Shown here piece by piece: positions 18,093 to 51,289 of a stretch of 63,533 nucleotides of DNA. This stretch comes from Chiloscyllium plagiosum. Its lineage: Eukaryota. The stretch is taken from NCBI RefSeq assembly GCF_004010195.1, contig NC_057756.1:1949703-2013235 (forward strand), given 5' to 3'. The notes under the pieces are model-generated. The model ran no database searches, was not told where the DNA came from, and saw only the letters and a program-made list of their open reading frames with translations. The translations under genes and the position numbers were made by a program. How positions within the stretch are numbered: position 1 is the stretch's first letter; every line of letters starts with the position of its first letter.

Positions 18093-18119
18093 CTATTTCC
18101 TTTGCCAGTATTGACTTCG
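18093..18119 (-). CDS. 27-nt phase-1 micro-exon, (A)KSILAKEI
   Basis: aatgtttacag|CGAAGTCAATACTGGCAAAGGAAATAG|gtatgt. Confidence 0.7.
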   Translation of the reverse strand, partial: RSQYWQRK

Positions 18120-18932
18120 CTGTAAACATTTTTAAATAACTTTTATAACATTTGTATAAATGATTTCTTCCTGATTACCTTAACAAGTTAAAAAATTATT
18201 TGCATAAGATAAGGCAATTGAGTAATTAAGAAGAACAATTATGCTCATATAAATATCTGATCTGCGCTCTAAATCTCTACCATTATGATATGTCGACAGA
18301 CTAATCTTCTTTGCAACTCATCTGGCATGATGAGTAAGAAAAAATTCTGCGAAATAATTCTCTAAGGCTACATCGATACCATATTCAAAGCATGCGGAAA
18401 GTCATTATGTTACTGCAAAGGAACATTTGGATAAAGCATGCATTCTATAATATTTGAACTATTTCATGCTTAATTTGCAAGTAAGTACAGAAAATTGCAG
18501 CTGTGACTTTCCTTCGAGGAAATCTGTTCAAAAATCATCGGGATGATTTTATTTGGCATTGAGTTTGTTTCAAAGAAAAGTTTATATCTAATCTCAACTC
18601 AAGCTTTTCTATGATCAAAGTTCAAACCATACGGAAAGCAGAAATTGAAAAAAAGAATGTTCGTAGCCAAAAAAACGAAGGGATGTATAAACTCATCGAA
18701 TGAGTCACGATTATTATGGGTTCACTTATCCTGAAATAGAATACTCAGTCGAACGTTCATGAGGTGAAAATGTAATTTAATAAATTTTGAATCAGTAAAA
18801 CAAATGAAATATTACTTTTGTTAAAGAAGTAAAATAAGAAGCATGGATATGACAATGTATTGGCTTATTGCAAACCAGGTTGAAGATGAATTAGGAATAT
18901 ACTCATCATAGGAAATGAACTGAAACATTCAC

Positions 18933-18968
18933 CTGTCAATCCGACCGAAATATCCAGAAAGCTCATGA
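18933..18968 (-). CDS. 36-nt phase-1 micro-exon, (V)MSFLDISVGLT
   Basis: tcttactcagttcag|TCATGAGCTTTCTGGATATTTCGGTCGGATTGACAG|gtgaat. Confidence 0.55.
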
Positions 18969-19941
18969 CTGAACTGAGTAAGATACACATTGCACTTTGT
19001 ATCTGTTACATATGAGGTGGTCTGTGCCATGAGTTAATAATCAGTGAAATTAGGTTTTATACGTTGCATTCATAATTCTTTCGCAGTTCTGTGTACAAGG
19101 GAAGTCCCATACTAAATTTCAATTTACAAAATATTTTTCTGTATGCAGTCGTGGAATCTGGGCTTAATTGGCTGTACCAGGATATATCTTCATTCTATTT
19201 CACCATGAGTGTGGCAGCAAGTTGCCTTCTGCAGTATTGAAAAAGAGGTAATGCTGCTAAGATTGGTTTTTCATGATTTCGCTTGAGCAGCATCATAGAA
19301 AACGACATTCTGCTTACTTGCTCATTGCACGTCTTGCAGAGTAACTTGCAAATTGTGTCAATGTCCTGCAAGATGGAAGTGGTTAAGATTTTTGGAATTT
19401 TATGCCTGTAGCATGTGATAGTTGCACTCTGCGGCTGTTGTGCATCTATGTTGGATAAAGTGACTATTCATGCTATAGCAATAAGGTAGTTGCTTCAGAT
19501 CTCTGAGATTGATCAACAGCTGAATTTGAATTAACGTCCTCCATAGCATCATTCCTACTGAGAGTGGTGTTTATGATTAGATATATTGCAAATGTCTTCA
19601 CTACAAGAACCGCTAATGTATTTTGATTTTGTGTATTTTTGGAAGTACGATAGAATGTCTCTTTAACAGTCCTATCACGTAACACGATAAAGACATCATT
19701 ATTTTTTTCTGCCTGCCAATATAACAGCTATATAAGGAAGTGTCTGCTTTTTCAGTTTTCGCTCTTATACCCCTTCTTAGAATTGAAAATAAGTGTATTA
19801 TTTTTTTCTCTGATGCGACAAAAAAAGGGTTAAACTTGAGTAAAACCGAATGTGAGTGATACTCAATGTGTCCGGTGGCATAAAACAGAAATTACTTGAT
19901 TTGAAATCACAGCAGGTCTATCAGCACCTTTCGGACAAACA

Positions 19942-19968
19942 CAGAGTGTTTTGGATCCAGTGAATCTT
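19942..19968 (-). pseudogene. Decayed 27-nt exon relic, EDS LDP KHS
   Basis: Acceptor cctctttctgcag intact; GT is one base off register. Confidence 0.4.
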
Positions 19969-20190
19969 CTGCAGAAAGAGGAAGGAATAAGCAACAGGAT
20001 GGAATAGAGTCCAAAGAGAGAGAAAGCTACATGTGTCCAGACAAAAGCATAGGCAAGGTCAGCGAGATATTCCTGTTTGCTTCTCCCCATGACGAGTGCC
20101 ACATTCAATTATTAAGAAGGCACAATTTAAGTAAAACATTATATATCTGAATTATTCTTAAGAAGAAATGTTAAAAAATGCAATTCCTAC

Positions 20191-20217
20191 CTGACGCATG
20201 AAGAAGAGCATCAAGTT
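20191..20217 (-). CDS. 27-nt phase-1 micro-exon, (E)LDALLHAS
   Basis: gttatccttttaag|AACTTGATGCTCTTCTTCATGCGTCAG|gtagga. Confidence 0.65.
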
Positions 20218-20449
20218 CTTAAAAGGATAACGAAGTAAATGCAAGGCAAACGAAATAATGCATAGATAACAATCACAAAATCCGTCAAGAGCGTTCTGGG
20301 TTTATAATATTCAATAGACATTACGTGAGGAGTTTACTTTTTTGTTCAAATAGAGCAGTCACTGTTTATCTCTCGGCTAAAGTAAAACAACTTTTAACAT
20401 AAATATAGTAGACATGTGGATACTACACCTCTGCGACATAAATTCAGAA

Positions 20450-20780
20450 AATGGTGGCACACTTGCTCACTGTCTAGCATGACAGCTTCAGAGAGGCATG
20501 GGCTCGGGTTCGATTCTAGTCACGGATGATGTCTGTGTGAAACTTGCACATTCTCCACAGGTGTGCACGGGTTACCTTTCAGTGGTCCAGTTTCTTCCCA
20601 CAGTCCAACAGTGCCTAGGAAACGTGGACTGGCCTGCTAAAATGTTCATACTGACAAGTGATGTCCAGGTTATGGAGATTCACAATGGGAAATGTAGCGT
20701 ACGGGAATGGGTCTGGGTGGCTTTCGGAGGGTTGATGTAGCCTAATGGCCTGAATTCACACTGTAGGAGTTCTATGATCG
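20450..20780 (+). mobile_element. Old degenerate HE1/V-SINE
   Basis: Colinear similarity to 39592-39915. Confidence 0.75.
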
Positions 20781-21129
20781 ACCTGTTTCCTTCTCGTTAG
20801 TGGTTTCCTGCTGCTTAGTAGATTGAAAGAGAATGCTGAACTAACATAAGTGGAAGAACTCAGTAAAGCAATTCATTGAGTGAAACAGAAGCAGCACAAC
20901 ACAGGAGAGTAGAAAGCAAAGGGAGACTCTCACAGTAAGATTATGGGCACAGCAGGAACTCGAGGACGTAGAGCAGGAACGATTGGCAGAACCATGGAGA
21001 TCCACGTCACATTTTCTACTCTAAATTATGGTGCTATGTGAAAACTCTTTGTATGTCACGGATTCTGTTGCATCTTTCTTGAGAGAAGTTCGCTTAACCC
21101 CAAATATCTGCTGACATGTCTTATTAAAG

Positions 21130-21605
21130 GGTTCTGAAAAGACATACAAGGATATTGCCAGAATTGGAGGATTTGAGCTATAGGGCTAGCCTGAACTGGC
21201 TCGGACTGTTTTCCCTGGAATGTCGGAGGCAGAGGGGTGACCTTATAGAGGTTTGCAAAATTATGTGGGGCACGGATAGGGTAGGTAGTTAAGGTATTTT
21301 CTCTGGGGTCGTGAAGTCCAGAACTAGATGGCATAGGTTTAGGGTGAGAGGGGAAAGATATAAAAGAGACGTACGGGGCAACTTTTTCACGCAGAGGGTG
21401 GTACGTGTATGGAATGAACTTTCAGAGGAAGTGGTGCAGGCTGGTTCAATTGCAACATTTAAGAGGCATTTGAATATGTATATGAATAGGAAGGGTTTGG
21501 AGGGATGGCAGGTGGGACTAGACTGGGTTGGGATATGTGGTTGGCATGGAAGGATTGGACCAAAGGGTCTGTTTCATGCTGTAAATCTGTACGATTCTAT
21601 GATTC
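21130..21605 (+). mobile_element. CR1-type LINE 3' end
   Basis: GLFSLECRRQRGDLIEVCKIM and GNFFTQRVVRVWNELSEEVV motifs, with (ATTCTATG)-like tail. Confidence 0.9.
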
Positions 21606-21719
21606 TAAATGTACACAGTTTGCTCATTATGTCCTGTTTAATTCACTTGAACGAGAATATAGCCAAACACCATTTTGGACAGAGCGGAAACAATGAATGC
21701 CGAGGCATGTGTATGTCCA

Positions 21720-23330
21720 GTTATAGTGTTATTGAAATGTACAGCGTGGAAATAGATCATTCGATCCATTTTATCGAATATTAATCTAGTCCCTTTTGCC
21801 AATGTTTGGCAATAACCTTCCAAATACTTCCTATTCATGAATGCATCCAGATGTCTCTTAAATGCTGTAATTGCACCAGCCTTCGCCACTTCCCCTGCAG
21901 TGCATTTCATACAAGAAACGCTGTCCTATTAGATTCCTTGTAAATTTTCCCTCTCTCACTTTAAATCTTTGTTTTCTGGTTTTGGACTCTGCAACACTTG
22001 AGGAATATGTTTTTTTCCATCTACCGTGCTGATGCCCCACATGATTTTGTGAACTTCTATAAGATTAACCATTCACCTACAAAGGTGCAGGAAAATAACC
22101 TGATCCAATTCAGTCTTTGCTAATAGATCAAATTCTTTAATCCTGGCAGCATCCTTGCAACTCTTTTCATAACCGTTTCAAGTTTCATAACTAAAGCAGG
22201 GACCAGAATTGAAAGCAATATTACAAAAATGGTCTCACCAACGAGTTTCACAGTGGCAGGATGACCTCCCAAATACTAAACTAAATGTACTGATCAATAA
22301 TGGCAAGCATACGTATCCTGTATACTTGCCAATCTACTTTAAAGCAACAATAAAACTCCACTTCACCGCACCTTACCATGTTGTGTGTAAGTCCTGCCCT
22401 CATTTACGTTTCAAAGATGCAGTATCTCACATTTATGTCAACTAAATTAAACGTGCATCTCCTCGCTCCATCAACGGGTCTGAATATAGTGCCATTGTGC
22501 TCGAACGTAATATTCATGCCTTTATACGACAGCACTAAATTTGATGTCGCCATAAACTTAATAAACATACTTCCGTGGTCTCATCCAAATCATTTATATA
22601 AGTGACAGAAAGGAGTTGAGTCAGCACCAATCTTGTGGCATGCTGCTGGTCACAGTCCAACAATCTATAAAGCATTCCTCCACCACCACCTTCCGTTTCT
22701 GTCCGTTGGGCCATTTCAATATCTAAATCACTACAGAACCTTCAACTTCGATGTTGCACCGACCAGTGAAACCAATATGAAGCCCAACGAACCTACACAA
22801 TTCCACTTTCGTGAATATGATGATCCAACGAACATTTAAATGCCTTTAAATGTGGCATGTTCAATACGATTGCAGGTCGGCCATTCCACGCTACTCCTAC
22901 TCTCTGAGTAGAGAACCCACCTCCGACATCTGTCCTATATCTCTGACCCCTCAATTTAAACGATGCCTGTTCATGCTAGCCATCACCTCACTGTCCACCC
23001 AATCTAACCCTCTGATTATCATTCTGGCTCAATTTATTCATCTCTCAAACTTCTTCTCTCCAACAAAGACAGCCTCAAGTCCTCCGCCTTTCCCGGTAAG
23101 ACCTCCTTCCATACCAGTCAACCTCCTAGTAAATCTCCTCTGATACCTTTCCAGAGCTGCCACCTCCTTCCTACCGGGCGTGACTAGTACTGAATGCAAT
23201 GCTTCAAGAGCAGTTGCACCAGACGTTTGTGCAAATGCAGTATAATCTCATGGTTCTGAAACTCAATCCCTCTACTAAACGAAAATAGTACCCCAATGCC
23301 GATTCAACCAAGGTGGCAACTTCCAATGTT
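21720..23330 (-). mobile_element. Two degenerate CR1-type LINE fragments
   Basis: Minus-strand AGAITAFKRHLDAFMNRK and related CR1 3' motifs. Confidence 0.8.
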
Positions 23331-23608
23331 TCTTAATTATCAAGTTTTATTTTGTGACATGAATTCAGCTATTTCAGAGTTGCAGATATAAAGTGAATGA
23401 TAAGAGATTGTTTGGTGAGTCTAGCGAAAGTTAAGCCATCCAAATGAAAAATATAATGTTTTATTTGAGACTGTAAAATTATGTCAGGACAGAGGAATAT
23501 GCACTGAGATTATTGTGCAAGTGTCTTGATCTGAAATGGAACAATGTGAATTAAATGGCAAGGGAGTAAATGCAATACAACAATAATTATTTAGTTTTAC
23601 TTAGTAAT

Positions 23609-23662
23609 TTCTAGCTCGAGGTTGATATTTTCCGACGAGCTTGGAAGCAAACCTCCTCGAGT
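23609..23662 (-). pseudogene. Decayed 54-nt exon relic, DSR RFA SKL VGK YQP RAR
   Basis: Strong acceptor tttattctatcctttccccgtag; donor position attact. Confidence 0.45.
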
Positions 23663-24121
23663 CTACGGGGAAAGGATAGAATAAAGGGTTTGGGAGTGGT
23701 TTTGTTTGTTTTCTCTGGAAAGATACAATTACTTTCATCCCGTAATCTCCCTTTTTTTCTATCATTCTAATGGATGACTATGTCTGTGCTGAACAAATTA
23801 AAAACTAACACAATTCCGTGTGCAATGTTCTGCAAAGCTGCCAACCACATTTAAAAAGTTCGACTTGTCCATTTGGAGACAAAACACAACAAACAAAAAT
23901 CAAGTTCTAATACTGGAACAGTACACTTTCGTCCTTAACAAGACAAAAAACGAGACCGTGCTTGTGACAGTGTGTGAGGATTTGACATTTGATTATATTA
24001 ACAATGCTACGTTCCTGAATGTGGAGTGAATTAGTTTATCCTCGGTCTTGAGTAACGACTCAGCATTCACATAATTAGTTTATGTACGTTCTCCCACTCT
24101 ACTTCACTTGGAGTCTCTGAT

Positions 24122-24175
24122 AGCCAGAACGAACCAACGCCTTCGCTTCACAACAGATGTCATAATCGCTTGGCT
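24122..24175 (-). pseudogene. Decayed 54-nt exon relic, EPS DYD ICC EAK ALV RSG
   Basis: Acceptor aattcttctcag intact; donor position atcaga; 5 of 6 triplet-start codons one step from GGN. Confidence 0.4.
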
Positions 24176-24664
24176 CTGAGAAGAATTGCTTTGCTCTGAT
24201 GGAAGGAGCATAGCAAACTGAACATCAATTGTTATTGTTTTTTTTTCTAAATGGTACAAACATAGATGACCACTGCATTTCTCATTATTGACACAATAAT
24301 TGAACATCATATTAGATGTTGCTAAGTCTTAGAACGAAAGTAACATAATTTTATTTCAAGATTTTGTAATTGTAAGTTAATGAGAACGTTGAGTTCTAAA
24401 TTATATTTGCATGATACACGCGTCGTCATTTGAAGATTTAGAAGTTAAACACGTTTTCTCTTTTTCTGATTCACATGAAGCCAACTGAATTTCTTTCCTA
24501 ACCGCTACTGTTGGATGTTTTCTAATCTGCATCAACTTTCAAACGTATCATCATTTATTTATTTATTGCCTCAGTTCTACCTTCCATCCCACACTCCGTG
24601 CAAAATATGCTCCTCCTTACGAAGCTAAATCACATGATGAAATTTTCGACTTCATGACATTATG

Positions 24665-24800
24665 GAGAAAGTGAGGACTGCAGATGCTAGGAGATCTGAC
24701 TTTGAAAACTGTGGCACTGAAAATACACAGCAGGGCAGGCAGCATCAGAGGAGCAGGAGAGCGGACGCTTCAAGCATAAGCCCTTTATCAAGAATGCATT
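24665..24800 (-). mobile_element. Penelope terminal-repeat fragment
   Basis: Similar to 13032-13125. Confidence 0.7.
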
Positions 24801-24922
24801 CCATGGCAATATGGAATGCACCTCATCGAAAGGTTTTCGGGAGTGTTCTGCTGCAGGACGTGACTTACTTGTACTGTAAGAAAGAAGAGATATTAACGTG
24901 AAGAACAATGGTATGGAATTAC

Positions 24923-24949
24923 CTGATATTAGCTTGGGTGGGGTTTCAC
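24923..24949 (-). CDS. 27-nt phase-1 micro-exon, (G)ETPPKLIS
   Basis: gtttattctccag|GTGAAACCCCACCCAAGCTAATATCAG|gtaatt. Confidence 0.65.
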
Positions 24950-25556
24950 CTGGAGAATAAACTAGGAGTTTAGTATTGATACAGACTACATTTAAATACT
25001 TTTTGAAAGGTACGCATTCTTTTTTTCAGAAACGTAATCTTTTTTTAAAAAGAAGCTAACAAGCGACTAAGAAAACTGAAGCATTATCACCAATCTTACA
25101 GAGGGTAGCATAATGGAAGCATAATGCGAAATGTGCCTGATTATGCAAGGAATTAATGACGCAATGATTTTTCAACATTCATGGGTCAATTTTATTAATC
25201 ATGGCTTCTCTCTTGTTTTGGAACAATGATAATTGATTCTGTTAAGTGTACAGACTTTTCTCATTTAATTAGAACATCGCAGTTAAATGAGTGTAGTACT
25301 CCATTATTGCAAACTTTAGAAATTCTGCTGATTTATGACTGTGAGCTATATCCGAAACACATGCATTTCATATGTTGCAGTCCCTAACATGTGGTCAAAG
25401 AGAAAACTCCATTATTAGTGATATAAATATTAAATATAGCAGTCTGCATTAAAATGAGAGAACATGTTTCGGTGATCAATCTATTACTAAGTCATTCAAG
25501 TCAATCTGTCAACTTCGAGTCCCCGTGAAACAAAAGAAAACAAACGTGTATTAGAC

Positions 25557-25583
25557 CTCCGTTTGTTAAACTTTTATGGTACT
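25557..25583 (-). CDS. 27-nt phase-1 micro-exon, (E)YHKSLTNG (weak splice context)
   Basis: gattactgcag|AGTACCATAAAAGTTTAACAAACGGAG|gtctaa. Confidence 0.4.
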
Positions 25584-26085
25584 CTGCAGTAATCTTTGCA
25601 AAAGCACAATATAACGTTAGTTCTACGGGTAGACAAGCAAAAATTGTTTACTTTTTTGTGAGGACAGGTACAAGGAGCACTTTTTTTATGTGCGAACGCA
25701 ATCCAAACGGCATGGCAAACATGCGATTGAACATAATGCCGTAGCAGATGATTCATGTTGCATGCAAATGCATCCAACAAATGGTTGGAACAATAGTGTG
25801 ATGCCTTTTTCTAGAAGGAAATCAGATGTAACTCTGCGCTAACGATTGAAAACTGAGCATATTGTTATTAATTATGACTCGCCTAATTTTGGTATGATTC
25901 TCCAAATTTTATTTAATGTGCTTGCATTCATATTTTGAGTGAACACAGGAGTGCCGATGTTTTAAAACAATATTAGTTGTAACTAATCTCATGAAGGAAT
26001 TAGAATTCTAAATCGATAACAATATTTGAAACAGTTTGTCATGTGAGTTTAAACAAAAATGTTTTAATGTAGGCTTCTTTCTTAC

Positions 26086-26112
26086 CTTTCTCGAATTTAT
26101 CGAGTCTGTCTT
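26086..26112 (-). CDS. 27-nt phase-1 micro-exon, (Q)DRLDKFEK
   Basis: ttttcaccatcattcag|AAGACAGACTCGATAAATTCGAGAAAG|gtaaga. Confidence 0.7.
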
Positions 26113-26813
26113 CTGAATGATGGTGAAAATACAATTCTGTCAACAAAGTCCAGTTTCAAACCTGGCAAATTTTTACAAGTCATTTTCCTTCACAAGAATT
26201 AAAAAAAAAACTACATATGAATCATTTTTGATGCAGATACTTTTGTGCATTTGTTGATTGGATATTTTTCATTCACAATTAATACGCACTATGAAAATGA
26301 AAGAAAGATTTTTGAGACTGAATGATACAAAGTGTTGGAACATTTTTTTGCAATATAATTAGTAGACGGGAAACAAGAAATGTTTACTTCACCATTGAAG
26401 GAAAACACAAATGAAATTCATAACGATAAAGGCTAAAATAAATAATAGCTTTTTTTTCAAAGTGAGTGTAATCATCGTTATATTTAAAATATCTCGACAG
26501 GCACAACAAAATAAATAAACGTACGCAGAAGATAATCCAGAAATGCCTAGCAGCAATTATTTCAGAACAATTTAAGTTGTATTACGAAAGAAGAACGATG
26601 GGTAAGGTGGAATTTCTTTTGGTTATTGTTGCCCAAGGGTAAAAAAAAAACACAATGTCCAGTAAAGAAGTGAGAGTTCAAAGCGAAACTGCTTTTCAAT
26701 GGCCAGTAACATTAAGTGGTCGAAACAACAACTGGAGAGACGGGAAATGTGAACAAAAAAGCAAGAAACGAAATGCACCAGAATTTAATTCATTAATCAA
26801 TAACATTTCTCAC

Positions 26814-26849
26814 GGGCTTCTTTGATCTGTTTTTTCAAGTTTTCTAGTT
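26814..26849 (-). CDS. 36-nt phase-1 micro-exon, (E)LENLKKQIKEA
   Basis: ttgttttctcgtgtttcag|AACTAGAAAACTTGAAAAAACAGATCAAAGAAGCCC|gtgaga. Confidence 0.7.
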
Positions 26850-27408
26850 CTGAAACACGAGAAAACAAAGTTAGTTGACTGTAACGGAATCTATAGGAAT
26901 TTCTGAACATTAATCCTCATTTAAATCATTTGATTGCTTTATCAATGATTAAATTCGTCGTTCATTTTTTTAAAATTGCAATATGATTGGATAAAAGCAC
27001 CATTTCAGATTGCAAAAAAAGCACGGCTACAGAAAATGAGGAACAAAAAGCGTGGAACATTGCAGATACAGAGGGATGGTATGTTCGCCGAGATGGGAAT
27101 TTGGACGCAGTCGTTTCGTTCACTGTGTAGGTGACATCCTCAGTGCCGTGAAGCACTGCTGTACTGTGTTATTGAAGGTAATTTAGTTTCATTTCAGCTG
27201 ATCTCAGTTGCCAGTTCTGGCTGTTCATTGCAATGGGATCTATATTTTGTCCAGTTACATGTGTTTAGTGACGGAGACCTTGGCTGAGTTACATGCTTCG
27301 AGGAATTCTCTGGCTATCCATTGCTTCGGTTGACCTATCATTTCTGTGTTGTTCCAGTCGATTTCGTTTTTCTTGTCGTCTGTGGTTTTTTTTTAGATAT
27401 TAATGATA

Positions 27409-27639
27409 CTCGCAAGGTTTGTGAAAGTTTGTAGCTCAGGTTGAGGTTGAGGGTGTAGGTTGTCTCGCTGAGCTGTCGGTTTGATATCCAGGAATCCCAC
27501 CCAGTAGAAAGATATAAATAGAAAGCAGGAGACAACAGCTTCACTTCACTTGGAGGTCGCCACTGATGATGTTACCTAGCCAGGTAATGAAACGTCTGGA
27601 TATCAAACCTACAGCTCAGCGAGTAAACCTACACCTTAA
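27409..27639 (+). mobile_element. Young non-autonomous Penelope-derived insertion with 12-bp target duplication
   Basis: atattaatgata at 27397-27408 and 27640-27651; internal inverted repeat about 27451-27491 vs 27596-27636. Confidence 0.85.
27560..27599 (+). ncRNA. Minimal hammerhead ribozyme motif (Penelope-associated)
   Basis: cca-CTGATGA-tgttacct agcc aggtaat-GAAAC-GTC-tgg: intact core, stem II, short stem I and palindromic ACGT stem III. Confidence 0.75.
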
Positions 27640-34950: not shown

Positions 34951-35866
34951 TATTGGTAACCTTCTTGTTCAATACATGCTTGCATTGGAAAATGTTTGGG
35001 AAACATTTTCATGACTTAATCAGGAACACGTTAGGACAAATCTACGCATGGATTTCAGAAGTTGAGAATGATCTGCCTGAAGTTGATCAACTTTAATGTT
35101 GGTTAACAATAAAATGTGTTGTTACAACGCAGAATGAAAACAGCTAATTCCCACACCTCTGCACCCCATGTGTTTCAAACTAATTTTGATTTCATTATTC
35201 ATCCAAGATGTCAAGTGAAAAAAGCGCACCTATTGCTTTATCGAGTAGCAGTCTGTCTGTAAATCAGAAAATATTGCACATTACATATGTTCAAATCATT
35301 TGCATCTTAATATATGAAACTGGTTATTATCCACGGGCAAAAAAAACTGGATCTCAACTCTCTGGTGATAGCAATTTTGAATATTTAATATAATTTGGAG
35401 CAGATTTATATTCAAAATCAAAGATTTCACAATTGTTAGTGATCAACTTGGAGCCGTGATTGAAAGTCAAGTTTCTGCTGCTAATGAGATACTGCATCTT
35501 TATTTTTAAATAACATCAGTAAGACCGGATATCTCGTTGTTAACTATTTGCATCAAGGAGACTAAAGAATCAAGTCGTTGAACTAAAGGAAAATAAAACG
35601 TGCTTTATATTTTCCTTGTTGTTGCTTTTCAATGTCTCATGTTTGATGCAACGCAGGTAAGTCTGTTCCATTATTCCTTTAATAAACCATTTTCACTTTT
35701 CATGCAGTGAACATTTGAAGTCCAGTTTTGCCTCATGGCATATTGGATCATTTGACTTGCGTGCTTGAGGAAATAATATGGTAATCAAAATGGTCTTATC
35801 AAGTGTTAAATGGAAAATACATGACACTGCAATTATAGAGCGTTTTGCAATCTAGTACTTACTCAC

Positions 35867-35893
35867 CGTCTGATTTGAATTTTCCATCTTGTT
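35867..35893 (-). CDS. 27-nt phase-1 micro-exon, (E)QDGKFKSD
   Basis: tttcttttttattcag|AACAAGATGGAAAATTCAAATCAGACG|gtgagt. Confidence 0.7.
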
Positions 35894-36132: not shown

Positions 36133-36168
36133 CATGAATGACTTAAAGTTCTCAATTTTGGCTTCCTT
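36133..36168 (-). pseudogene. 36-nt exon relic with intact AG/GT but phase-1 stops, EGS QN* EL* VIH
   Basis: cttttggatcag|AAGGAAGCC...TCATTCATG|gtgaac. Confidence 0.4.
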
Positions 36169-37800: not shown

Positions 37801-37836
37801 CCATGCTCTTTATAAGCTCTGTCAGTTTGTTCACCT
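37801..37836 (-). CDS. 36-nt phase-1 micro-exon, (E)VNKLTELIKSM
   Basis: gttattttcatttcag|AGGTGAACAAACTGACAGAGCTTATAAAGAGCATGG|gtgaga. Confidence 0.65.
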
Positions 37837-39591: not shown

Positions 39592-39915
39592 GGGCGGCAC
39601 GGTGGGCGGCACGGTGGCACAGTGGTTAGCACTGCTGCCTCGCAGCGCCAGAGACCCGGGTTCAATTCCCGACTCAGGCGACTGACTGTGTGGAGTTTGC
39701 ACGTTCTCCCCGTGTCTGCGTGGGTTTCCTTCGGGGGCTCCGGTTTCCTCCCACAGTCCAAAGATGTGCAAGTCAGGTGAATTGGCCATGCTAAATTGCC
39801 CGTAGTGTTAGGTAAAGGGGTAAATGTAGGGGTATGGGTGGGTTACGCTTCGGCGGGTCGGTGTGGACTTGTTGGGCCGAAGGGCCTGTTTCCACACTGT
39901 AAGTAATCTAATCTA
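39592..39915 (+). mobile_element. Full-length young HE1/V-SINE
   Basis: A-box TGGCACAGTGG, B-box GGTTCAATTCC, V-domain core, (TAATC)n tail; attatt duplicated at 39586-39591 and 39916-39921. Confidence 0.95.
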
Positions 39916-40164
39916 ATTATTGCTTTCAGTACAATATAGTTATTTTCTATTAAAACTGAAAATGTATTTTCAAATTCCTTCCCATTGTGATATTATAACA
40001 CTGCCTGTCTCTGATACTGAGTACAATGTGCACAATGTTCACCTTTTTGGTGTCATTTACAGTCATTACATATTACCATATAAGTTGCCACAATTGGAGC
40101 AAAAGCACTCCTTCGTTCATGCAGGTAGTTAATGTAATTATTGATTTTATACACTGTGGGTATA

Positions 40165-40375
40165 TTATTGTCGAGAATGTGGTGCTGGAAAAGCACAGCA
40201 GGTCAGGCAGCATTTGAGGCGCAGGAGAACCGACGTTTCGGTCATAAGACGTGCATCACTCATTCCTGATGAAGGGCGAATGCCTAAAACCTCGGGTGCA
40301 GCCTGATCAACTGTGCTTTTCCAGCACCACACTCTCAACTCTGATCTCTAGCATCTGCAATCCTCAAATTCTGCT
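40165..40375. mobile_element. Inverted pair of Penelope terminal-repeat fragments
   Basis: gtggtgctggaaaagcacag vs ctgtgcttttccagcaccac; CTGATGAAGGGC hammerhead relic. Confidence 0.75.
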
Positions 40376-40409
40376 AGTGTATTATGTTGTCCAATCTGAT
40401 CAAGTATGG

Positions 40410-41900
40410 AGTGATAGAGAGTCAGACACTCCGATAGCCCTTTGGCCCAAAGTGGTCTATGCTGACCAAACTGCCCATCCAAGCTAAATCCATTTCCCTG
40501 CACTTTGCCCATATCTTTCCAAATACTTCGTATTCATAATTTAGACCACATGGCTTTCAGACGTTTATAATGTGCCCACTTCAAACACTTCTACTGTTAG
40601 CTAATTCCATCTGTGTATCATCCTCTGTGTAAAACATTGTTTTTCCTTCTAACCTTAAACTGCTGCCCCCTCGTTATCAGTTCTCCAAACCTGAGATAAC
40701 GACGTAGAGCATTCACTCCATCCATACCTCTCTTATACACTACGATAAGATCTCCCCCTTTAGTCGCCTTAGCTTTAAAGAAAAACTCTGAGTTTGTCCA
40801 ACATCTTCCTCTAACTCTGAACCTTGAGTCCTGCCAATGTCCTTGTGAATTTATTCTGCACACTTTCCAATTTAATAACGCCCTTAAAGTCCACACAAGG
40901 TGACTCAACCAGATTACAATACTCCAACTGTGCCTCACCAATGTCCTGCAAAACTCCAACATAAATTTCCATTTTTTATATTCAATGCTCTGACTGATGA
41001 AGGTCAGTGTTCTAAAAGTTTACTTCAATACCCTATCTACTTTTGGCTCTGTTTTCAGAGAACCATGCACCTGAACACCAAGGTCCTCGTTTCCATTTTA
41101 CTCCTGAAAACCCTATCTTTCACCATGAAACGGCTACCTTAATTAGACTTTGCAAGTGCAATTCCTTACCCTTATCTATATTAAACTACGTCTGTCATTT
41201 ATCGACACACTTCCCCAGAGAATCAAGGCCCTACTGCAATTTCTAATAAAATTCCTCACTGTCAACAATACCACCTATTTAATTTCATCTGCAACTTACT
41301 AAACATGCGTTACATTCTTATCCAAAATATTGATGTAGTTTTACAGTAGTAATGAGTGCTGCAGCAACCCCTGAGTCACAGATTAGTCACAGGCCTTCAG
41401 TCTGACAATCATTCTTCCACTATTATCCAATGCTTCGTACCATCAAAAAAATGTGTATTCAGTTTGCCAGGATTCCATGCAATCCAACCTTCGAGAGAAG
41501 ACTATCACGTGTATGTCGTGAACGCCATTCTTGATGAGTAATTGAAAGGCCTTATTTAAATGCATATAAGTTATGTCTACCGTTCTGCACTCGCCAACCT
41601 TCTTGGTCACTTTATCAATCAATTCGAATAAATTTATGAAGCATGATTTTCCATGCACAAACCAATGTTAACTTTTCGTGATCAACTCTGTCTTTCTGAA
41701 TGCGTGCAGATCTTATCCATCAGAATATTTCCAAGTAACTTACCTACAACATATGTTTTGCTTACTGATGTACAGTCACCATGTTTTAATTTGCAGCTCT
41801 TCTTGAATTAGGACAGTACATTCGCTAGCGTCTGTTCTTCCCAACATTACTTATGCTTAACGAAGATGGGAAATTTTCAGCCAGGACCCTGCAAGTGTGG
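40410..41900 (-). mobile_element. Degenerate CR1 LINE (RT to 3' end)
   Basis: HGKSCFINLFELIDKVTKKVGECRTVDITYMHLNKAF; GGDLIVVYK. Confidence 0.85.
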
Positions 41901-42329
41901 CTCACTTTTCCTGTGCAATGCAAGAGTCGTTTCAATTTAAGAACATCGTGACTTGTTTTATTGTTCGGAATTATAGATGTCATTTCACTTTAAATCCCAT
42001 GATCACAGCCATCACCGCTCATTTTAAATTCCATAACCACACCTATTACAACTTTATTGCAGAAATTCACTCTTGCGTCGCCATCAGCCAAATTTCTCAG
42101 CTCAGTAATACAAAACCTTAATACTTTCCTTCTGAACGATACTTCAGGCCATGCATGCATTATCTTTCAACATTTCTCTTCTGACTGGTTAGTGCACACC
42201 TTTCCATTCATCTGTCCTTAATATCGGAAATCGACTATCATTTGAGTTGTAATCTTCGTGTGTAACATGCAACCTATGGGCTCTCAAAACTTCTGCTTTT
42301 ACTCGAAGTTGATAGAAGTTATCCCCAAT

Positions 42330-42570
42330 AAGTATTCATAAAGCACGGAAACAGACCCTTCGGTCCAACTCACCTGTGCTGATCAGACATTAAAATTTCA
42401 TGTGGTCAAGTTGCCAGCAATTCATCCCTATCCCTTTAAAAGTTCCTATTGAAATGCCCTCTCGAATATAACTTAATTTGTTTAATTGTACCCGGTTTCA
42501 ACACATACTCTGGCAGATATTTCCATTCGCAAATTGTTCTCTGCATGAGAAAGGTGAACTTCAGATCCTT
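42330..42570 (-). mobile_element. CR1 3' tail fragment
   Basis: ggaaacagacccttcggtccaactc motif, as in other CR1 tails in the window. Confidence 0.65.
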
Positions 42571-43712
42571 GAAAGACATCTAGAATGGCGTTCTTAACAT
42601 ATAAATTTCAATTCATGAATAACAATTATGGTTACATACATGCATATGTCGCCATCGACGTCTACGTACTCAGATAAATGCACAGCATACGTAAAGTTTG
42701 GTCGATGGTCAGTTAAAATAATATTATGTTCAATGTATATACATTTATTTTACAGTTGGGCAGACCCAGAAGACACTTCTTCTCCCTTGCATTCTTAAAA
42801 CTGTTTCAGGTTTTGATTTATCTATCGTGTTGCACTGACATATATATCCCGCAGCACGTCTTCAATTCTTTGGGAATTCTCAGCATTCCTTTCGCTTCAC
42901 AGTCACATCAAATACTGTTCACATCTTAAGTCCAGCACTTCATTAATAAAATACAAGTAGAGACGTTTTATTCATGGGTGTTTTGTAGAGGTAGGTGAGT
43001 GGTGCTGACTCAGCTATACAGGGTAAGATTGGCCATCAGCAATTCTCTATGGCTTTTCTTTATTCATATATTTCAGCATTTGGTATATTCAATAATTCAT
43101 TTCTAAGTAATGTTTCCAGGAACAGTTTATTATAAAGTCATTAACTTGCAACATATAATTTACATGCTGCAATTATTCAGATATTTATATCTGCATTAAT
43201 GTAACCAGTTTCAATGGTTTGTAGATTGAAACAAATAGATGCAGTGAATAAAAAAAGAAATCGTTTGTGCTCTTCTGTTAGGTAACCCTTTTCTCTGTTT
43301 AATCTATACTAAGTTTCTAAACAAAAGTCACATCTCTTCATTCCCGACTTTCTAACCAGTAAATGTTCATTCAGGTAGAGTATTGTTTTTGGACTGCATG
43401 TACAATCTCCCTTTGGTGCGCCATGTTACTTCTCGAGCCTGTACATTCTAATTTTTTAAAAGAATGAATGATGCAGTAGTGCAACGTATGTCGCAATGGT
43501 AATTTATTGAGTTGTAGAGAGTGAACGCACTTGCTACAATAAAAAAACCCAAAACTGCTTGATCTCATCCCAAACTTAGATAACACTATTTGAAGCAGGG
43601 TTTAAGAATAGAGAGAGAAGTAATGTTTGTCTACCTTTCGGTTTCTACGTTTCAACCTCTCTCTCACTGTATGCCCAACATTCTGTCCCTCTCTTTCGCA
43701 CTAAATCGATCG

Positions 43713-43713
<1 letters not shown>

Positions 43714-43804
<91 letters not shown>

Positions 43805-43890
43805 NNNNNNNNNNNNNNNNNNNNNNNNNNNNNNNNNNNNNNNNNNNNNNNNNNNNNNNNNNNNNNNNNNNNNTCTATCTATCTATCTAT
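43714..43890. repeat. (TCTA)n / GATA microsatellite containing an assembly gap (N 43805-43873)
   Basis: Directly visible. Confidence 0.98.
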
Positions 43891-45445
43891 CTGTCTCTCT
43901 CCATCATTTTCTATCTCACAATCGAAACATACACCAATAACTTTTTTCTTTATTTTTTTAAAATGCAATTCTATTCAACTTAGGATCTCCGTATTTGGAT
44001 TCTTCTCTCTTGATCATATGATTATGACTAAAAACAGTTCTTCGAAATGGCCTACCACATTTGGCAGATATATCGTTAGCAGACTTCCCATTTCTATGCT
44101 AAACATCATCCATTTCTGATATGATCGATTGCTTTGAACGAACCATTGGACATAAATAATTTTGAAGCAAGTAGTCTTTCTTTGTGATAGATTGCTCTCT
44201 GCAGAACACAACGCCATTACTGAACGTCATCACCAGGAAATTGCAAGCATGTTTTGGGCATTATTTCACTATTATTATGCAAACATTTTATCTTTGAGTC
44301 CAAATGAAATAACAATATTTGTAGTGGAAGGGAGTGAACAAAAGATTAATCACGAGTACCACTGATGCAAACAGAGCAGTTCGGGATGCAGCTTAATGAT
44401 TTGGAAGAGTGAGTCGAGGTTATATTTCACATCCATTAAGCTCACTTATCATTTTGCAGTACGAGTGACAGAGAGCATGCAAAGAGTTTTTTCAAGAATT
44501 TCAAATGGTGCTGATGTAATGCCAAATACTTGGCTGGGGGATTATTGTATGGACAATGTGAAGTTTCCCACGTTTTCAGAAGACAAGACAAACGCGCAGT
44601 ATTGTACCAATTTTTGCAGATCTGCCAAGTGTCACACATAAAAAATACTTTGGTTGTTTTACAAGATCAACGATCACAACACTGCAGGTGGAGTAAGCAG
44701 TTAGAAAGGGAAATTCTGTTGCAAGATATTTTCGAGTGAGAAAAACAGTTTTCTTTGTTCTAGTGTACAAAATTTAGGCATGACACGAGATGATGGATGC
44801 TGAGGCATTTCGTGCTGATTTCGACCATCAACCAGGAGCAGGCTGCAAGAGCGATCGTGCCCAATAGAAGTAATGACAAATGGCTGAATGCGTTCAAATG
44901 TTGTATTTTTGTTATAAAGCGTGAAAACGTAGCTTCTCTATTTTGACAGGCGCTGCATCCACTGTAAGTCAATAGGATGCTCGTTGTTTTCAGATTTCGA
45001 TTTGACTATTTGCATTAAAATTGCTGCTGTCTGTCTGATTAATATCCTGGGTTGAATTGAGTGAAACGTTAGTGGAATGGAAAACCTTTCGATGTTTTGC
45101 TGAGTCAAATTCTCTTTAGCAACATGTTTACAAATTGATAATATTATTAATAATGATGACGTTGATAATTGATACATCGGACCACAGGACCCTCTAAATA
45201 CGTTAAGAATATTTCATGGTACCCTAATAGTTTCTGATTTTAAGGTTACCAGTGAAATGTTGCATTCCTAGTGCAATTTGTTTGGTCAAATTATTCGACC
45301 ATAAGCAAAACACACTGCAGTCAAAGTCCAGACAAATTAAAACTAAAATAAAAGTATGAGCTTAATTTTAACTCAATCGATTTGTTTACAACTTCTATGC
45401 AGGAACACATTCAAATTAGCTGTTCCAATATAGTAACATACTTTA

Positions 45446-45499
45446 TTCACACCCTTGGCAAAGACGCATTCAGTTATGCAGATTGTCTCATGTGTAATT
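45446..45499 (-). pseudogene. Decayed 54-nt exon relic, ELH MRQ SA* LNA SLP RV*
   Basis: Acceptor cacttcctgctgctag intact; two stops; donor shifted or lost. Confidence 0.3.
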
Positions 45500-45879
45500 C
45501 TAGCAGCAGGAAGTGAAACCCAGCTTTTGTTTGCAAGAGAGAGGAATGGGAACTTCAACATGCAGTATCAAGATCTCTGTAACTTCAGAAACCTCAAAAG
45601 TAAGTCGTGGTTTTGTGGACCTTGACAACATTCATCCATAATGCTTCTATGTATCATGTTTCGTTAAAAGTGCTCACAAGCTGTTTGTGTAATTGGCTTT
45701 GAGTAAACAGTTCTTTACCTCCGTCTCAAACATTTTGTCAGTTAAAAAAAAAGAAAGTACAATTCGTGAAGGCAGTGTCTGCAACGTCCAATCCCCACAA
45801 GCAAAACTGAATATCAATAAACAATGATGATATTTTTTAAAAAAACATCTTCAAACTTAATCAATTAGCATACACATGG

Positions 45880-47150
45880 AGAACATAGAACATAGCGCAG
45901 TGCAACACGGAACAGGCAATTCGGCCCTCGATGTTGTACCATCCTTTTATCCTATCTTCGATTAAGTAAACCTGCATATCATCCATGTGACTCACCAAGA
46001 GTTAGTTAAATGACACTAACGTGTTTGAGGCTACTACAATTGCTGGCAGTGAATTCCTCGCAAGGACCACTCAATGTGTAAAGTACCTACATCTGGCATC
46101 TACCCTAAACTCTTCTCCAATCAGCTTAAATTTATGTCACCACATTGATAGCTATTTTAGCCCCGTTAGAAGATCTCTGGCTATCCACTCTATGTATGGC
46201 TTTCATTATCTTGCACGTCTCAATTATATCACGTCCCAACATCTTCACTTTATTTGGAACAGTCCTTACTCCCTCAAACTTTCTTCTTAAGACATGCAGT
46301 CTACTCCAGGCAGCATCCTGGTAAATCTCTGCTATACTCTCTCAAAACTTTCCACATTCTTCCGACAATGAGGTGACCAAAATTGAAAACAATATTCCAA
46401 GTGTCATCCAGCAGGCCTCTGTCGAACTGCAGCACAACCGCGCGGCTCTTAAACTCAACTCCTCTACTCATGACATCTAACACGCTATACGCCTTCTTAA
46501 CAATCTTATGAACTTGGTTGGCAACCTACAGGGATCTATGGACATGGAACCCAAGATCCTACTGCTACTCCACACGGCCAAGAATCATGACATGATCCCT
46601 GTAATTTGCAGTGGAATTCGAACACTCAAAATGAATCGCTTCACACTTTTCCAGAAGGCATTCCATCTGCTACTTCCCAGCATAGCTGCGCATCCTGTTA
46701 TTGTCTCCTTGAAACCTACAACAGCTCTCAACAATATCCACAACTCCAAGAATCTACGTTTGATCAGCAAACGTGCTAGCAACATTTCCTATTGCTCATT
46801 TAAGTAATTTATAAACATCACAAAGAGCAGAGGTCCCAGAACAGATTCCTGCGGAACTCCTCAGATCTCCGAGCTCCAGGCTGAATATATTTAATTTCAT
46901 TTGACACTATGTCTTCCATGGGTCAACAAACTCTGTACCCAGACAGCCACGTTTCCCAGTTTCCTGCAACCTCACATTCTGAATGAGCCTATGTTGTGGT
47001 ATGTTATCAACAACCTTGCTAAAATCCATAGTAATCGCATTCACTACTTGACCTTCAACAATGCGTTTTGTTACATCCACAAAGAGTTCAAGATGTGTTG
47101 TGAGGCACCACTGCCCCTCACAAACTCATGCTTTCGGTCACTAATCAAGC
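45880..47150 (-). mobile_element. Degenerate CR1 LINE
   Basis: SRGVEFKSRAVVLQF; similar to 32245-33060 and 58880-59700. Confidence 0.85.
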
Positions 47151-47449
47151 TACTCATTTACACTTACAGCTAACATGCAAACATTCAATTCTAGAATCCA
47201 TGCAAGTCATTTTTTTTCCTTCCAATGAACATCACTATTCGGTGATGTTCTATTTGTCTTCATCAAATTCTGGGCAATATGATGGCAATTGCAAGTTTGT
47301 AATTCTGCTACGTGTATAATTTTCAATTTGAATTGCTACAATTATAAGCTGAATGCAAAAGCTTCGGATTTTTTAATCATTATTTTGGCCAAAATATTTA
47401 AGAAGTTATCTTCAGTATATAGTATTGTCTCAGATACATTATGTAAGTT

Positions 47450-47665
47450 TCCTCCTCGTTCTCTGGCTTCCTTTCATAATCCAAAGAGGTTATGTGTATT
47501 GGCTATGCAAAATTGCCCATAGATTTCAGCAGTGTGTAGATTTGATGCATTAGTAAGTAGAAATGTAAGGGAATGGGTCTAATTGAGTTAATGTTCGGAA
47601 TGTCATTGTGGCATTTCTGGGCCAAATTGCCTGTTTCCCTACTTAGGGATTCTAGTTTTCTATGA
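47450..47665 (+). mobile_element. Old HE1 SINE 3' half
   Basis: Similar to the HE1 core and tail. Confidence 0.6.
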
Positions 47666-48471
47666 GTTCTGGTATTTTAAATGTTGGTGTACGGCAATTC
47701 TTACATATGCAATACATCTGTTGGTAGTTCTTCAAATTTCTGGAAAACTGATCAATAAGATTTTACATCCTCTTGTTGTCTTCCTGCATGAGTAAAGCAC
47801 AGACATCTTCATAATTCACAATAGTAGCCATCTTGAATGGCATTATGTTCGTAGGTGTGGATCACAGTGAACCAGTGGGTAACACAGCTTTCAGGCTGTC
47901 TAATACCTTCTACCAATTTTCCTTACATTGAAATGATCTGCAGTTTTTCAAGAAATCAGTCGGTGAAGCAACCAAAATTCGAAATGTTTTTACAAACACT
48001 GTACATTTTTGTGATCTTCCACATTGTCCAAAATAATTGGAGAAATGCTCAGATTTGTCTGAACCTGGGTCTGCGCACTATGTTTTTTTATCAATAACAC
48101 ATTCCCCTTTAGTATTTCAGTCTGATTTTGTGTTAAAAAATCAATGATATTCACAAGACATACACTGAGATTACTTTCAATGTGGTGTTCATATCAAATA
48201 ATTTTTTTTCGATTGGTTAAACCATCTAAATCTTGGTTTTAGATGGTGAACTCCCACTGGTAATAATACTAACTCTTTTTTCTCAATAATGAAAGTTACT
48301 ATTTTGGATAACTTAACTTCTTCCTCTTTCATCACATCTTGCACGACTTTCAAATGTTGTCACTCAGCCCAATATGTAATATTTCACTAAAATTTGATAT
48401 ATAATCCAATATGTCGTCTTTGAACCCTGACTCGTCAATATCTCTTCAATGTTTTTCTTTGGTCATCTTAC

Positions 48472-48497
48472 CTTATGCCCATTAACTAAATCAAAAA
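48472..48497 (-). pseudogene. 26-nt frameshifted exon relic, VFD LVN GHK
   Basis: ttattttcag|TTTTTGATTTAGTTAATGGGCATAAG|gtaaga; 1 nt short of 27. Confidence 0.45.
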
Positions 48498-49195
48498 CTG
48501 AAAATAATTGCTAATTTGCATGCATACTTAATTACAAAAAGAAAACACAAATGGAATTCTTTCCTCTCTCCTTCCTATCTCCCAATCTTTTGGATAGTCT
48601 TGACTATCAGTCATCGACTTGGATTTTAAATTTGATTTCACCAATTTAATGCTCCGTGTGGTTCTGAATGGAAAACTGTCGATTCGAACTGATTTATTTG
48701 CTGTAAAATTTGACATCTACTCCAATTGTGTACCTGTCGGTAGTCAGTGTACAGTTAAATTTACAAAAAAAAAGCAACTCTTCTCCAATCTTTTTGGATC
48801 CCATACTGTGTGATTGGTTTAACTCTAGAAAGCTAGCAGATGCAGACCATTGCAGTCAACTAATACTGATTTGCAGTAAAAGTTTGAAGTAGTACCCTAC
48901 AAAGTCAATTGGATTTCTTGTAAAATACTCCTCAAATGCAGAAACGGGTATTCATGGTGTTGGTTATATAGCTACGTAAGGTTTTGCAATTATTTAACAC
49001 ATATCACATGTCTGGCAAAAGTCACTCACAATTTGTGCAGTCCAGGTCAATTAAAATGTTTCGGTATTTTTCTGTGACTTTTCCTTATACAAAAACGAAT
49101 ATCTAATGGTATTCTGCGGGTTGTCCACAACGCCACCTATTTAAAATCGAAAGGTAATACAACTTTTTGAACGTCTGCCCATTTTTTCCTTTCAC

Positions 49196-49220
49196 CTGAA
49201 TAAAAGATGATCTTCAAGTC
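49196..49220 (-). pseudogene. 25-nt frameshifted exon relic (GLE DHL..), similar to exon 20191-20217
   Basis: ttcttgcttag|GACTTGAAGATCATCTTTTATTCAG|gtgaaa; 2 nt short of 27. Confidence 0.45.
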
Positions 49221-49679
49221 CTAAGCAAGAACTCAGTCTTAAGAAAGCAGATATCCAGAGTATACTCAGATTCTTATTTTCTGAATGGTTTTTCATCGTA
49301 CTGTGTTTTTTTTTTGTTTGATTCAGACACACAGAAAAACAGAAATACAGAGATAGGGTCAGTCGACCAGAGATATTCACTGCGATTTCTCTCCACAGAT
49401 GCTCCCAGACCAGCTGAGACTTTCCAGTAATTTCTGCTTTTGTTTCTAAATTATAATATCCACAACTCTTTTACGTTTTATTTGCTTTACTTTTTCAACT
49501 TTACAATATGATATAACTGGTTTCTACAAACTAAAAATATCCAGTTGTTCCTCTATTTTTCTTTTCTCGCAAACATTTGAACACACATATTTTCTTATAA
49601 TTCACTCATGGCTTTGTGACCATACAAAAGCAGAGTGAGGAATTTTCCAAACGTGTACTTGCTGAAATACTGCAGTTAC

Positions 49680-49706
49680 CTGCTTTTCCATTGGATTTTT
49701 CAACAG
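49680..49706 (-). pseudogene. Decayed 27-nt exon relic, xLK KSN GKA
   Basis: Donor G|gtaact intact; acceptor position reads tac instead of tag. Confidence 0.4.
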
Positions 49707-50092
49707 TAGTAAGCATCAATCTCACATTTGATACAGGGCTATAATATTATCAAGGATTATCTGTGTTTCTGGAATCGAGAATTTTTCTATTACCCCTGCT
49801 TCAGCAGCAACACTTTTTATCAGAGTCGGTATTCTCACTTCATATGATGGACTCCTTTTGAACAACATACCACCCCATTCCTCCACGACGAATAATGACC
49901 TGGTCCAATACATGATGAAATCTTAATTTGTTTACATACTTTTACATGCATTCACGAGTAAATATAATCCTGCAAGTAAATTCTTTAGAAATATATTTCT
50001 TCTCAACCAAACCTTGATCTGGTTTTACAGTGTTCTGTCGCTATTTCAGTACTTCAGTAAAATTCATTGACTTATCACATTTTCCCCCATAC

Positions 50093-50110
50093 TTCCTACC
50101 ACTTCTTCTT
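50093..50110 (-). CDS. 18-nt phase-1 micro-exon, (E)EEVVG
   Basis: gcttttatttcag|AAGAAGAAGTGGTAGGAA|gtatgg. Confidence 0.45.
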
Positions 50111-51262
50111 CTGAAATAAAAGCACTGTGACTTCATGTCACCTGCTTTATTAGCGTAAAAAATATCTGAGCTGTTTTATTTCTTTTTGCTGTTCATGGCT
50201 TTCATTGTTACTCTCTGCGTAAACAATGTTTCCTGTCTTCAATGAGATATTTTCCCCTTTCCTGCCTGAATATCTTTCTTTGCCCAATTTCTATCTCACA
50301 GACTGAAATCGATTTCGGAAGACAAACCTAATTTATTAGTGAACCCATAATCTATCGCAACATCTGATGTCAATTTTATATTTTGAAATCACTGCTCTTC
50401 CAAATGAGGTCACATGCATTCACGAAGTGAATTTTTTAACTTCTCCAAAGCAATTGTCTCACTTACAGCTTTATAGCTTTGAACCATTTTCAATGCCCTT
50501 ATCCACCTATTAAAATAACAATGTTACAACCCAAAAAATAAATGTACATAGATCTTGTTGGAGAGTCTTCAGTGTCAAAACATACACGTTGCTCTCTTCC
50601 CACATTTGTTGCTAGACCTGCTAGCTTGCAGTCGCACTTTCTTGTTTCCATTTCACGTTCCCATCAATCACACTTCCCTTTTTATACTCAAATGTTAGTG
50701 CATGTACCATCAATCACGTTTCAATTTGCCGGTATATTTTCTGGATCATCTTATATTTCACTTCATAATATGAATGCTATACGGAACTAATGTATTTTGA
50801 ATGTGTGACTTCATTTTAGTGGGCCATTTAATTGAATTACAAGCCCACGTCAAAGTAATTAAGCAACCTTTAAGGGGAGCTATTATGATGGTAATTATCC
50901 ATGCATATTAAGCTGAAATATGACTCCGAAAGAAACGATGTTTCATCAATATTATTGCAATTCTAATTCTTGTGGGCCGTAAAGTTAACATCAGTATTCA
51001 AAATCAACCTTAAAAAAGATGCAAAATAAAAGATAATATGTAAAATTACACAGTGCAAGGCCATGCAGGTAGGTGCAAAATTAAAGATTATAAACTTGAT
51101 CTAATCCAAAGGGAAATCTTTACCGTGACGTTTTTGCACATTTTGTAATTTTGATACTGTAAGCAACTCGATATTGTATATCAAGTAAGGAAAATAGAAC
51201 CAGAAAAAAAAACAGTTTGATGAATAGGCAATATGATAAGTAGTTTTCAAAGAACCATTTAC

Positions 51263-51289
51263 CTAACTCTTTTTCAAGGATTGATTTGC
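51263..51289 (-). CDS. 27-nt phase-1 micro-exon, (G)KSILEKEL
   Basis: ctttgtacttttatctag|GCAAATCAATCCTTGAAAAAGAGTTAG|gtaaat; paralogous to exon 18093-18119. Confidence 0.7.
   Translation of the reverse strand, partial: ANQSLKKS

Follow-up and report, generated by a model that had tools for sequence, protein, structure and literature searches.

Two pairs of very short exons on the minus strand of contig NC_057756.1 of Chiloscyllium plagiosum are probably homologous micro-exons of one very large, unannotated coiled-coil gene or gene array. They were noticed in a stretch of 63,533 nucleotides (nt), positions 1,949,703 to 2,013,235 of the forward strand, which we call the window. Exon coordinates are given as positions in this window, and negative values, or values above 63,533, lie outside it in an extended region. 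The first pair consists of the exon at 51263-51289 (-), GC AAA TCA ATC CTT GAA AAA GAG TTA G between tatctag and gtaaat, which encodes KSILEKEL, and the exon at 18093-18119 (-), CG AAG TCA ATA CTG GCA AAG GAA ATA G between tttacag and gtatgt, which encodes KSILAKEI. Both are 27-nt units bounded by ag and gt, with 18/27 bases alike; the codons for Lys, Ile, Leu, Lys, and Glu differ synonymously, the Ser codon is the same, and Glu/Ala and Leu/Ile are replaced, giving five synonymous differences (sd 5) and two nonsynonymous ones (nd 2) by the Nei-Gojobori method. The second pair, recognized by the peptide LDAL (61497-61523 and 20191-20217), has the same ag/27/gt form, with 13/27 bases identical, sd 5, and nd 7. 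A single phase is common to all four exons: two bases end a codon, eight codons follow, and one base opens the next. The sequence-only reading that first drew attention to the pairs had the identity and the tally of the first pair exactly right, at five synonymous codons, one identical codon, and two replacements, and had read the LDAL codons at 61497 and 20191 correctly. The intron flanks of the first pair are identical at 11/50 and 16/50 positions, the level of random sequence.

These exons fall within a long array on one strand. We extended the window in both directions to NC_057756.1:1759703-2113235 (353,533 nt) and searched each strand for phase-1-open AG..GT units, which we scored with a crude home-made splice matrix. 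At a splice sum of at least 3, the minus strand held 36 candidates of 27 nt, against 2 on the plus strand, and 18 candidates of 36 nt, against 4; for every other length in the range 18-45 nt, there were 2-6 candidates on the minus strand and 1-11 on the plus strand. With a helical-composition filter added, the count was 42 on the minus strand against 5. Curation, in which nine splice-passing but non-helical candidates were removed by eye and 13 weaker-scoring members of recurring classes were added, left 58 exons, of which 40 measure 27 nt and 18 measure 36 nt.

The curated array covers 326,276 nt, with its outermost exons at window positions +136,538 and -189,702, and consists entirely of symmetric phase-1 exons, 13 of which lie inside the window. 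Its introns range from 108 to 29,591 nt (median 3,495 nt); at window 116750-116911 and 83010-83178, an exon of the form xKLxQCxK and the next 27-nt exon are just 108 and 115 nt apart. Acceptors are CAG in 38 cases, TAG in 13, and AAG in 7, donors carry a purine at +3 in 54/58 and G at +5 in 41/58, and the pyrimidine fraction upstream of the exons is 0.68. Because most exons end in G (51/58) and begin with A (50/58), the split codon at the junctions is mostly Glu (33/57) or Asp (11/57). There is no stop codon within the 58 exons or in the 57 junction codons.

Joined in genomic order, the 58 exons give a stop-free conceptual product of 575 residues, rich in Lys (16.7%), Leu (15.8%), Glu (14.4%), Asp (8.5%), Gln (6.8%), and Arg (6.4%), with 2.1% Gly and 0.3% Pro. 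Its hydrophobicity has a period that peaks at 3.5-3.55 residues in 28-residue windows. The 18 exons of 36 nt carry a hydrophobic residue at unit positions 2, 5, and 9 in 94, 94, and 83% of cases, and in the 16 cases in which such an exon can be paired with the 27-nt exon that follows it, the hydrophobic fraction at positions 2, 5, 9, 16, and 19 is 0.94, 0.94, 0.81, 0.69, and 0.44, while position 12 of these 21-residue pairs is mostly Ala, Thr, or Ser. A 36-nt exon and the 27-nt exon after it thus add up to exactly three heptads, whose core lies at positions 2, 5, 9, 12, 16, and 19. Hydrophobic residues at heptad spacing in a product rich in Lys, Leu, and Glu and poor in Gly and Pro point to a coiled coil, and by these heptad and composition criteria the predicted product is an alpha-helical coiled-coil rod.

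The exons fall into recurring classes: a 36-nt class with the pattern [LIM]ExL[KR]xxLKxA and 27-nt classes with the patterns xKLxQCxK, LDxLLxDA (class D), and K[SA][IM][LI]xK[ED]x (class E, to which KSILEKEL and KSILAKEI belong), joined toward the 3' end by the classes QRLSNREK and LEDLQQKC. An LDxL exon is followed by a KxxLxK exon in four units (61497/51263, 20191/18093, -46507/-47336, and -62956/-63636). In three of these four, a 36-nt exon and an xKLxQCxK-type exon stand first, and we take the duplicated unit to be a run of about four exons for this reason. When the KxxLxK exons are chosen solely by their position after LDxL (n = 4), their mean pairwise peptide identity is 3.83/8, a value reached in 172/100,000 random exon quadruples. 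When every exon, taken with 200 nt of its flanks, was compared by BLAST with the rest of the set, 13 exon-to-exon matches emerged, of which 12 end a few to about 25 bases beyond the exon edge. The match between the exon at 18093-18119 and that at -63636, for example, has 81% identity over 37 nt and is limited to the exon with 3 bases before and 6 bases after it. Ungapped flank identity across paralogous pairs is 7-25 of 50, and a self-BLAST of the window returned only dispersed repeats and no duplicated intron blocks. Since the introns of paralogues cannot be aligned, the duplications appear to be old enough for the introns to have become saturated; the sole paralogous pair with alignable introns is -73650/-85649 (72% over 342 nt). 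The sequence-only reading had proposed an internal duplication, and the repeated D-E order, the exon-limited matches, and the likeness of the E exons bear out that a multi-exon unit was duplicated; in the comparison of flanking introns, similarity stops at the exons.

Several copies have kept their peptide while changing its codons. EKLRQCEK differs at six synonymous and no replacement sites in the pair -32356/-54299, LDKLLQDA at three and none in -46507/-62956, and QRLSNREK at three and none in -159296/-169849. For pooled counts, we used every exon once, in eight pairs picked by nucleotide BLAST with the two pairs described at the outset left out. These contain 25 synonymous and 17 replacement differences, where about 25% synonymous would be expected at a kappa of 2 (binomial P 2.8e-6; 6e-8 to 5e-5 over a kappa of 1 to 4). 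With the two initial pairs included, the ten pairs give 35 against 26 (P 2e-7). By these counts, the specific peptide is conserved among the closer copies, and in older copies the pattern persists.

A number of observations weigh against this picture of a working gene under selection. The two initial exon pairs alone have 10 synonymous and 9 replacement differences, which does not sit well with a simple reading of selection. Between the window's four-exon unit and two distant units defined by position, synonymous changes make up the neutral share of the differences, with 11.7 synonymous against 32.3 replacement differences from one unit (P 0.44) and 12.2 against 31.8 from the other (P 0.41). 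The young pair -73650/-85649 has 0.5 synonymous against 4.5 replacement differences, with Pro gained in one copy; it looks neutral, so some copies seem to be without constraint, and a recently duplicated exon may here be on its way to becoming a pseudo-exon. The pyrimidine tract at the acceptor of 18093-18119 is weak (score -0.8 on our own crude matrix). The exon list itself is provisional, as a crude matrix, a composition filter, and removal by eye may have let in false exons and missed others. Neither end of the array was reached within the 353 kb read, and a Pfam scan of 119 of the 120 minus-strand open reading frames (ORFs) of at least 100 amino acids in that region returned only the transposon domains reverse transcriptase, RNase H, and GIY-YIG. 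Sequencing reads over window 8001-27000 were placed only on dispersed repeats and are uninformative on expression; the thin cover of unique bins there in one run may be DNA. The claim that the non-Gly protein sequence had been under purifying selection after internal duplication therefore holds for the closer pairs and not for the deep, position-defined comparisons, which have no synonymous excess, and the wider comparison with neutrality comes out the same way, with an excess in the pairs defined by BLAST and a neutral share between distant units.

The neutral share in the deep comparisons also bears on the idea that the exons became alike by convergence on an amphipathic Lys/Glu/Leu pattern, or through gene conversion limited to exons, in which case the synonymous differences would say little about age or constraint. 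A strongly biased composition is common to all exons, and any two 27-nt exons are already identical at 10.4/27 positions on average, with 24 of the 780 pairs among the 40 exons reaching at least 18/27, the level of the KSILEKEL and KSILAKEI pair. The order of exon classes is kept across four units, however, the E exons defined by position are more alike than random quadruples, and the nucleotide matches take in the splice-site bases. Under conversion, synonymous differences should have been lost, but pairs with identical peptides retain them at 3-6 of their 8 codons, and convergence too would mean selection on the protein. We therefore consider this explanation unlikely.

Somewhat less likely still is that the array is dead, dying, or never was a gene, its units being relics or chance AG..GT windows that are not spliced today. 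The lack of RNA support from the reads, the gene ends missing from 353 kb, the weakness of some acceptors, and the duplicate that evolves neutrally would all fit such a history. Against it stands the minus-strand excess at exactly two lengths, 27 nt (36 against 2) and 36 nt (18 against 4), along with the uninterrupted frame through all curated exons and junction codons, the retained splice signals, and a synonymous excess that persists although the introns are saturated.

The least probable alternative, to which we give very little credence, is a decaying or re-purposed collagen gene, in which the 27- and 36-nt exons would be former Gly-X-Y exons alike through a common GKS-GLx-GEx template. 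Some collagen genes have exon lengths in multiples of 9 nt and a split first codon starting with G. The array likewise has a long run of small exons, with lengths in multiples of 9 nt and a split first codon starting with G, and Gly is slightly more frequent in the would-be Gly register (6/134 sites, and 3/57 junctions) than elsewhere (3/384). Several of the listed register glycines, however, occupy one and the same place, position 7, in 36-nt exons that are related to one another (LENVKGALERS and its relatives), and are therefore not independent. Unlike collagen, the array lacks Gly-X-Y, its product is poor in Gly and Pro, as the percentages above indicate, and its hydrophobic residues follow a heptad and not a triplet pattern. 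Candidate Gly-X-Y exons number 9 against 7 on the other strand, which is no excess, and all Gly-X-Y runs of at least five triplets in the 353 kb stem from a single repeat-derived motif, with one occurrence on the minus strand and three on the plus strand. The collagen framing of the sequence-only reading falls on this evidence. Of its proposal that the locus had worked as a non-collagen repeat protein for some time rather than simply decaying, what stands is the appearance of a working coiled-coil gene, and what does not is the collagen past.

Returning to the coiled-coil array, the 13 exons inside the window are all on the minus strand, and we list them in their order of transcription with acceptor and donor scores. 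The first, at 61497..61523 (27 nt, phase 1, class D, LDALIRDL; ag/gt, acceptor 4.3, donor gtaaga), precedes a KxxLxK exon as in the three other units, that exon being 51263..51289 (27 nt, phase 1, class E, KSILEKEL; ag/gt, 2.0/2.1). A 36-nt exon at 37801..37836 (phase 1, class A, VNKLTELIKSM; 4.3/3.4) has hydrophobic residues at unit positions 2, 5, and 9, and next after it come the 27-nt exons at 35867..35893 (phase 1, class C, QDGKFKSD; 2.0/6.5) and 35230..35256 (phase 1, class E-like, RLLLDKAI; 1.9/3.4). The exon at 26814..26849 (36 nt, phase 1, class A, LENLKKQIKEA; 4.5/1.1), whose last base is c instead of g, forms a 21-residue, three-heptad pair with that at 26086..26112 (27 nt, phase 1, class B-like, DRLDKFEK; 1.8/6.2). 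At 20191..20217 lies the paralogue of the first exon (27 nt, phase 1, class D, LDALLHAS; ag/gt, donor 5.3), followed by 18093..18119 (27 nt, phase 1, class E, KSILAKEI; ag/gt), which combines its poor acceptor with a donor of 3.5. A class A exon of 36 nt at 15530..15565 (phase 1, IEILKRKLAET) has an aag acceptor scoring -3.7, a donor of 4.4, and a helical score of 0.91. Two 27-nt candidates of no clear class, RMKRSITT at 10213..10239 (0.8/3.9) and INTKIGED at 9814..9840 (0.2/6.0), come before the last exon, at 8423..8458 (36 nt, phase 1, class A, MRALNRKKRDT; 0.7/3.3).

Other features of the window are mostly repetitive. An inverted duplication at 13031-13590 and 13790-14368 (84% over 582 nt) contains ORFs with a GIY-YIG-like motif and is present at very high copy in a DNA run, which suggests a palindromic Penelope-type element. 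Every long self-match of the window is due to dispersed repeats in the array introns (54312-54615 and 39602-39911, 90%; 56925-57289 and 21256-21606, 81%). An (ATCT)25 microsatellite at 43705-43804 and following adjoins an assembly gap of 69 N. At the window's end, 63414-63533 is a tandem repeat with a 36-nt period and 3.4 copies, which on the plus strand has a Pro/Thr/Ser-rich open frame continuing past the window. An Rfam search of the window gave 0 matches.

Among known systems, the closest design is that of the cytoplasmic tails of chicken BG genes. Each of these genes has 13-36 exons of 21 (sometimes 24) nt; an exon encodes one heptad, its first and last residues being split with the neighbouring exons, and groups of exons recur, while the number of exons expands and contracts (PMC4046983). 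The array shares with BG tails a long coiled coil in tiny split-codon exons, with exon groups that in chicken recur along and between BG genes. It differs in scale, the BG genes being compact and built of 21/24-nt exons, whereas the array has 27- and 36-nt exons, at least 58 in all, over 326 kb or more. Each chicken BG exon, in the same account, holds whole heptads; here, with units of 9 and 12 residues, only the pair of a 36-nt and a 27-nt exon does so. As an analogy, the likeness in gene design to chicken BG tails is clear. None of the 119 minus-strand ORFs scanned contained a BG-type signal peptide, Ig V (immunoglobulin V), or transmembrane exon, in a region where the array's 5' end was not reached; the surroundings of the 5'-most exon showed no CpG island, and the stretch from +136 to +163 kb of the window showed no first exon.

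A second comparison concerns proteins in which a coiled coil stands before a B30.2 domain. In TRIM-type proteins, a coiled coil leads into such a domain. Mammalian butyrophilins have a few cytoplasmic heptad repeats ahead of it (PMC4046983); heptad repeats or a coiled coil before B30.2 are what the array would have in common with both families. B30.2 exons of one family are found on NC_057756.1 at 994,509 (+), 1,296,638 (-), and 4,577,486 (+). The minus-strand exon (NC_057756.1:1296638-1297162, of the PRY-SPRY type), located 3' of the window's start at a distance of 653 kb, is 42% identical to that at 4577486. It opens with two bases of a split codon, in phase 1 like the micro-exons, and its acceptor is strong, with cag following an extended pyrimidine tract, so that splicing to micro-exons such as these would be possible.

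Compared with representative proteins, this B30.2 exon gave 2772 matches, the best relatives being ordinary TRIM-type proteins at no more than 50% identity, and the three matches examined were TRIM-type tandem models. Among 329 candidates, no longer protein matched the contig's B30.2 exon at E <= 1e-10, and a blastp of the 575-residue conceptual product against 150 proteins from the search with this exon gave no match at E <= 1e-3. Within 1.76-2.11 Mb, no B30.2 exon was found, either in a search with a B30.2 ORF of the same contig or in the Pfam scan of ORFs. A Pfam SPRY search, in which 150 of 293 candidates were scored, had one on NC_057756.1, at 4.58 Mb, and none of 62 matches to a degenerate B30.2 motif fell on this contig.

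The tropoelastin gene, in which many small exons are all split in the same phase and can be gained, lost, or skipped in frame, offers a third parallel. The array resembles it in its many small exons of one phase, but its product is charged and leucine-rich, whereas tropoelastin is rich in Gly, Val, Pro, and Ala.

If the array is a coiled-coil gene, its exons would be spliced into one message, and the rod would dimerize. Each 27-nt exon would contribute 9 residues, and each 36-nt exon 12 residues, of a continuous coiled coil. Growth may have occurred by duplication of a multi-exon unit, which in and near the window would comprise a 36-nt exon, xKLxQCxK, LDxL, and KxxLxK. The introns would then have diverged past alignment, while selection on the protein preserved the peptide itself where copies are younger and no less than the heptad pattern where they are older. 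Because all exons are of symmetric phase 1, with nearly all boundaries in a Glu/Asp codon at the same heptad position, the units should be open to duplication, deletion, or skipping in frame; this symmetry would permit exons to be gained, lost, or skipped without loss of frame, and a 36-nt and 27-nt pair could come or go without a shift of register. Unequal crossing-over between repeated units may thus lengthen or shorten the rod, with selection then retaining the hydrophobic core and the charged flanks.

A broader reading, which we regard as possible but rather doubtful, is that there is a clustered family of very large shark genes and that the window falls inside one of them. Such genes would encode rods of hundreds of residues entirely from symmetric 27- and 36-nt exons, at three heptads per pair, with B30.2 as an immune-type recognition domain at the end, and the length and register of the rods would be tuned by unequal crossing-over and exon skipping. 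This family, which current annotation misses, would be related to the chicken BG and butyrophilin tails but older and far larger. A literature search, conducted mostly at the level of records, did not find such shark genes described.

Gene finders and short-read aligners are almost blind to genes whose exons are all below 40 nt, and a locus of more than 326 kb such as this one therefore reads as empty, repeat-filled DNA. Three marks of a working gene are independent of RNA, namely, the conservation of paralogues within exon limits, the excess of synonymous changes, and heptads that add up exactly. In combination, they offer a way to search for further members of the family. Should the link to B30.2 or butyrophilin-type genes hold, it would bear on the origin of the micro-exon tails of BG and butyrophilin (BTN) proteins.

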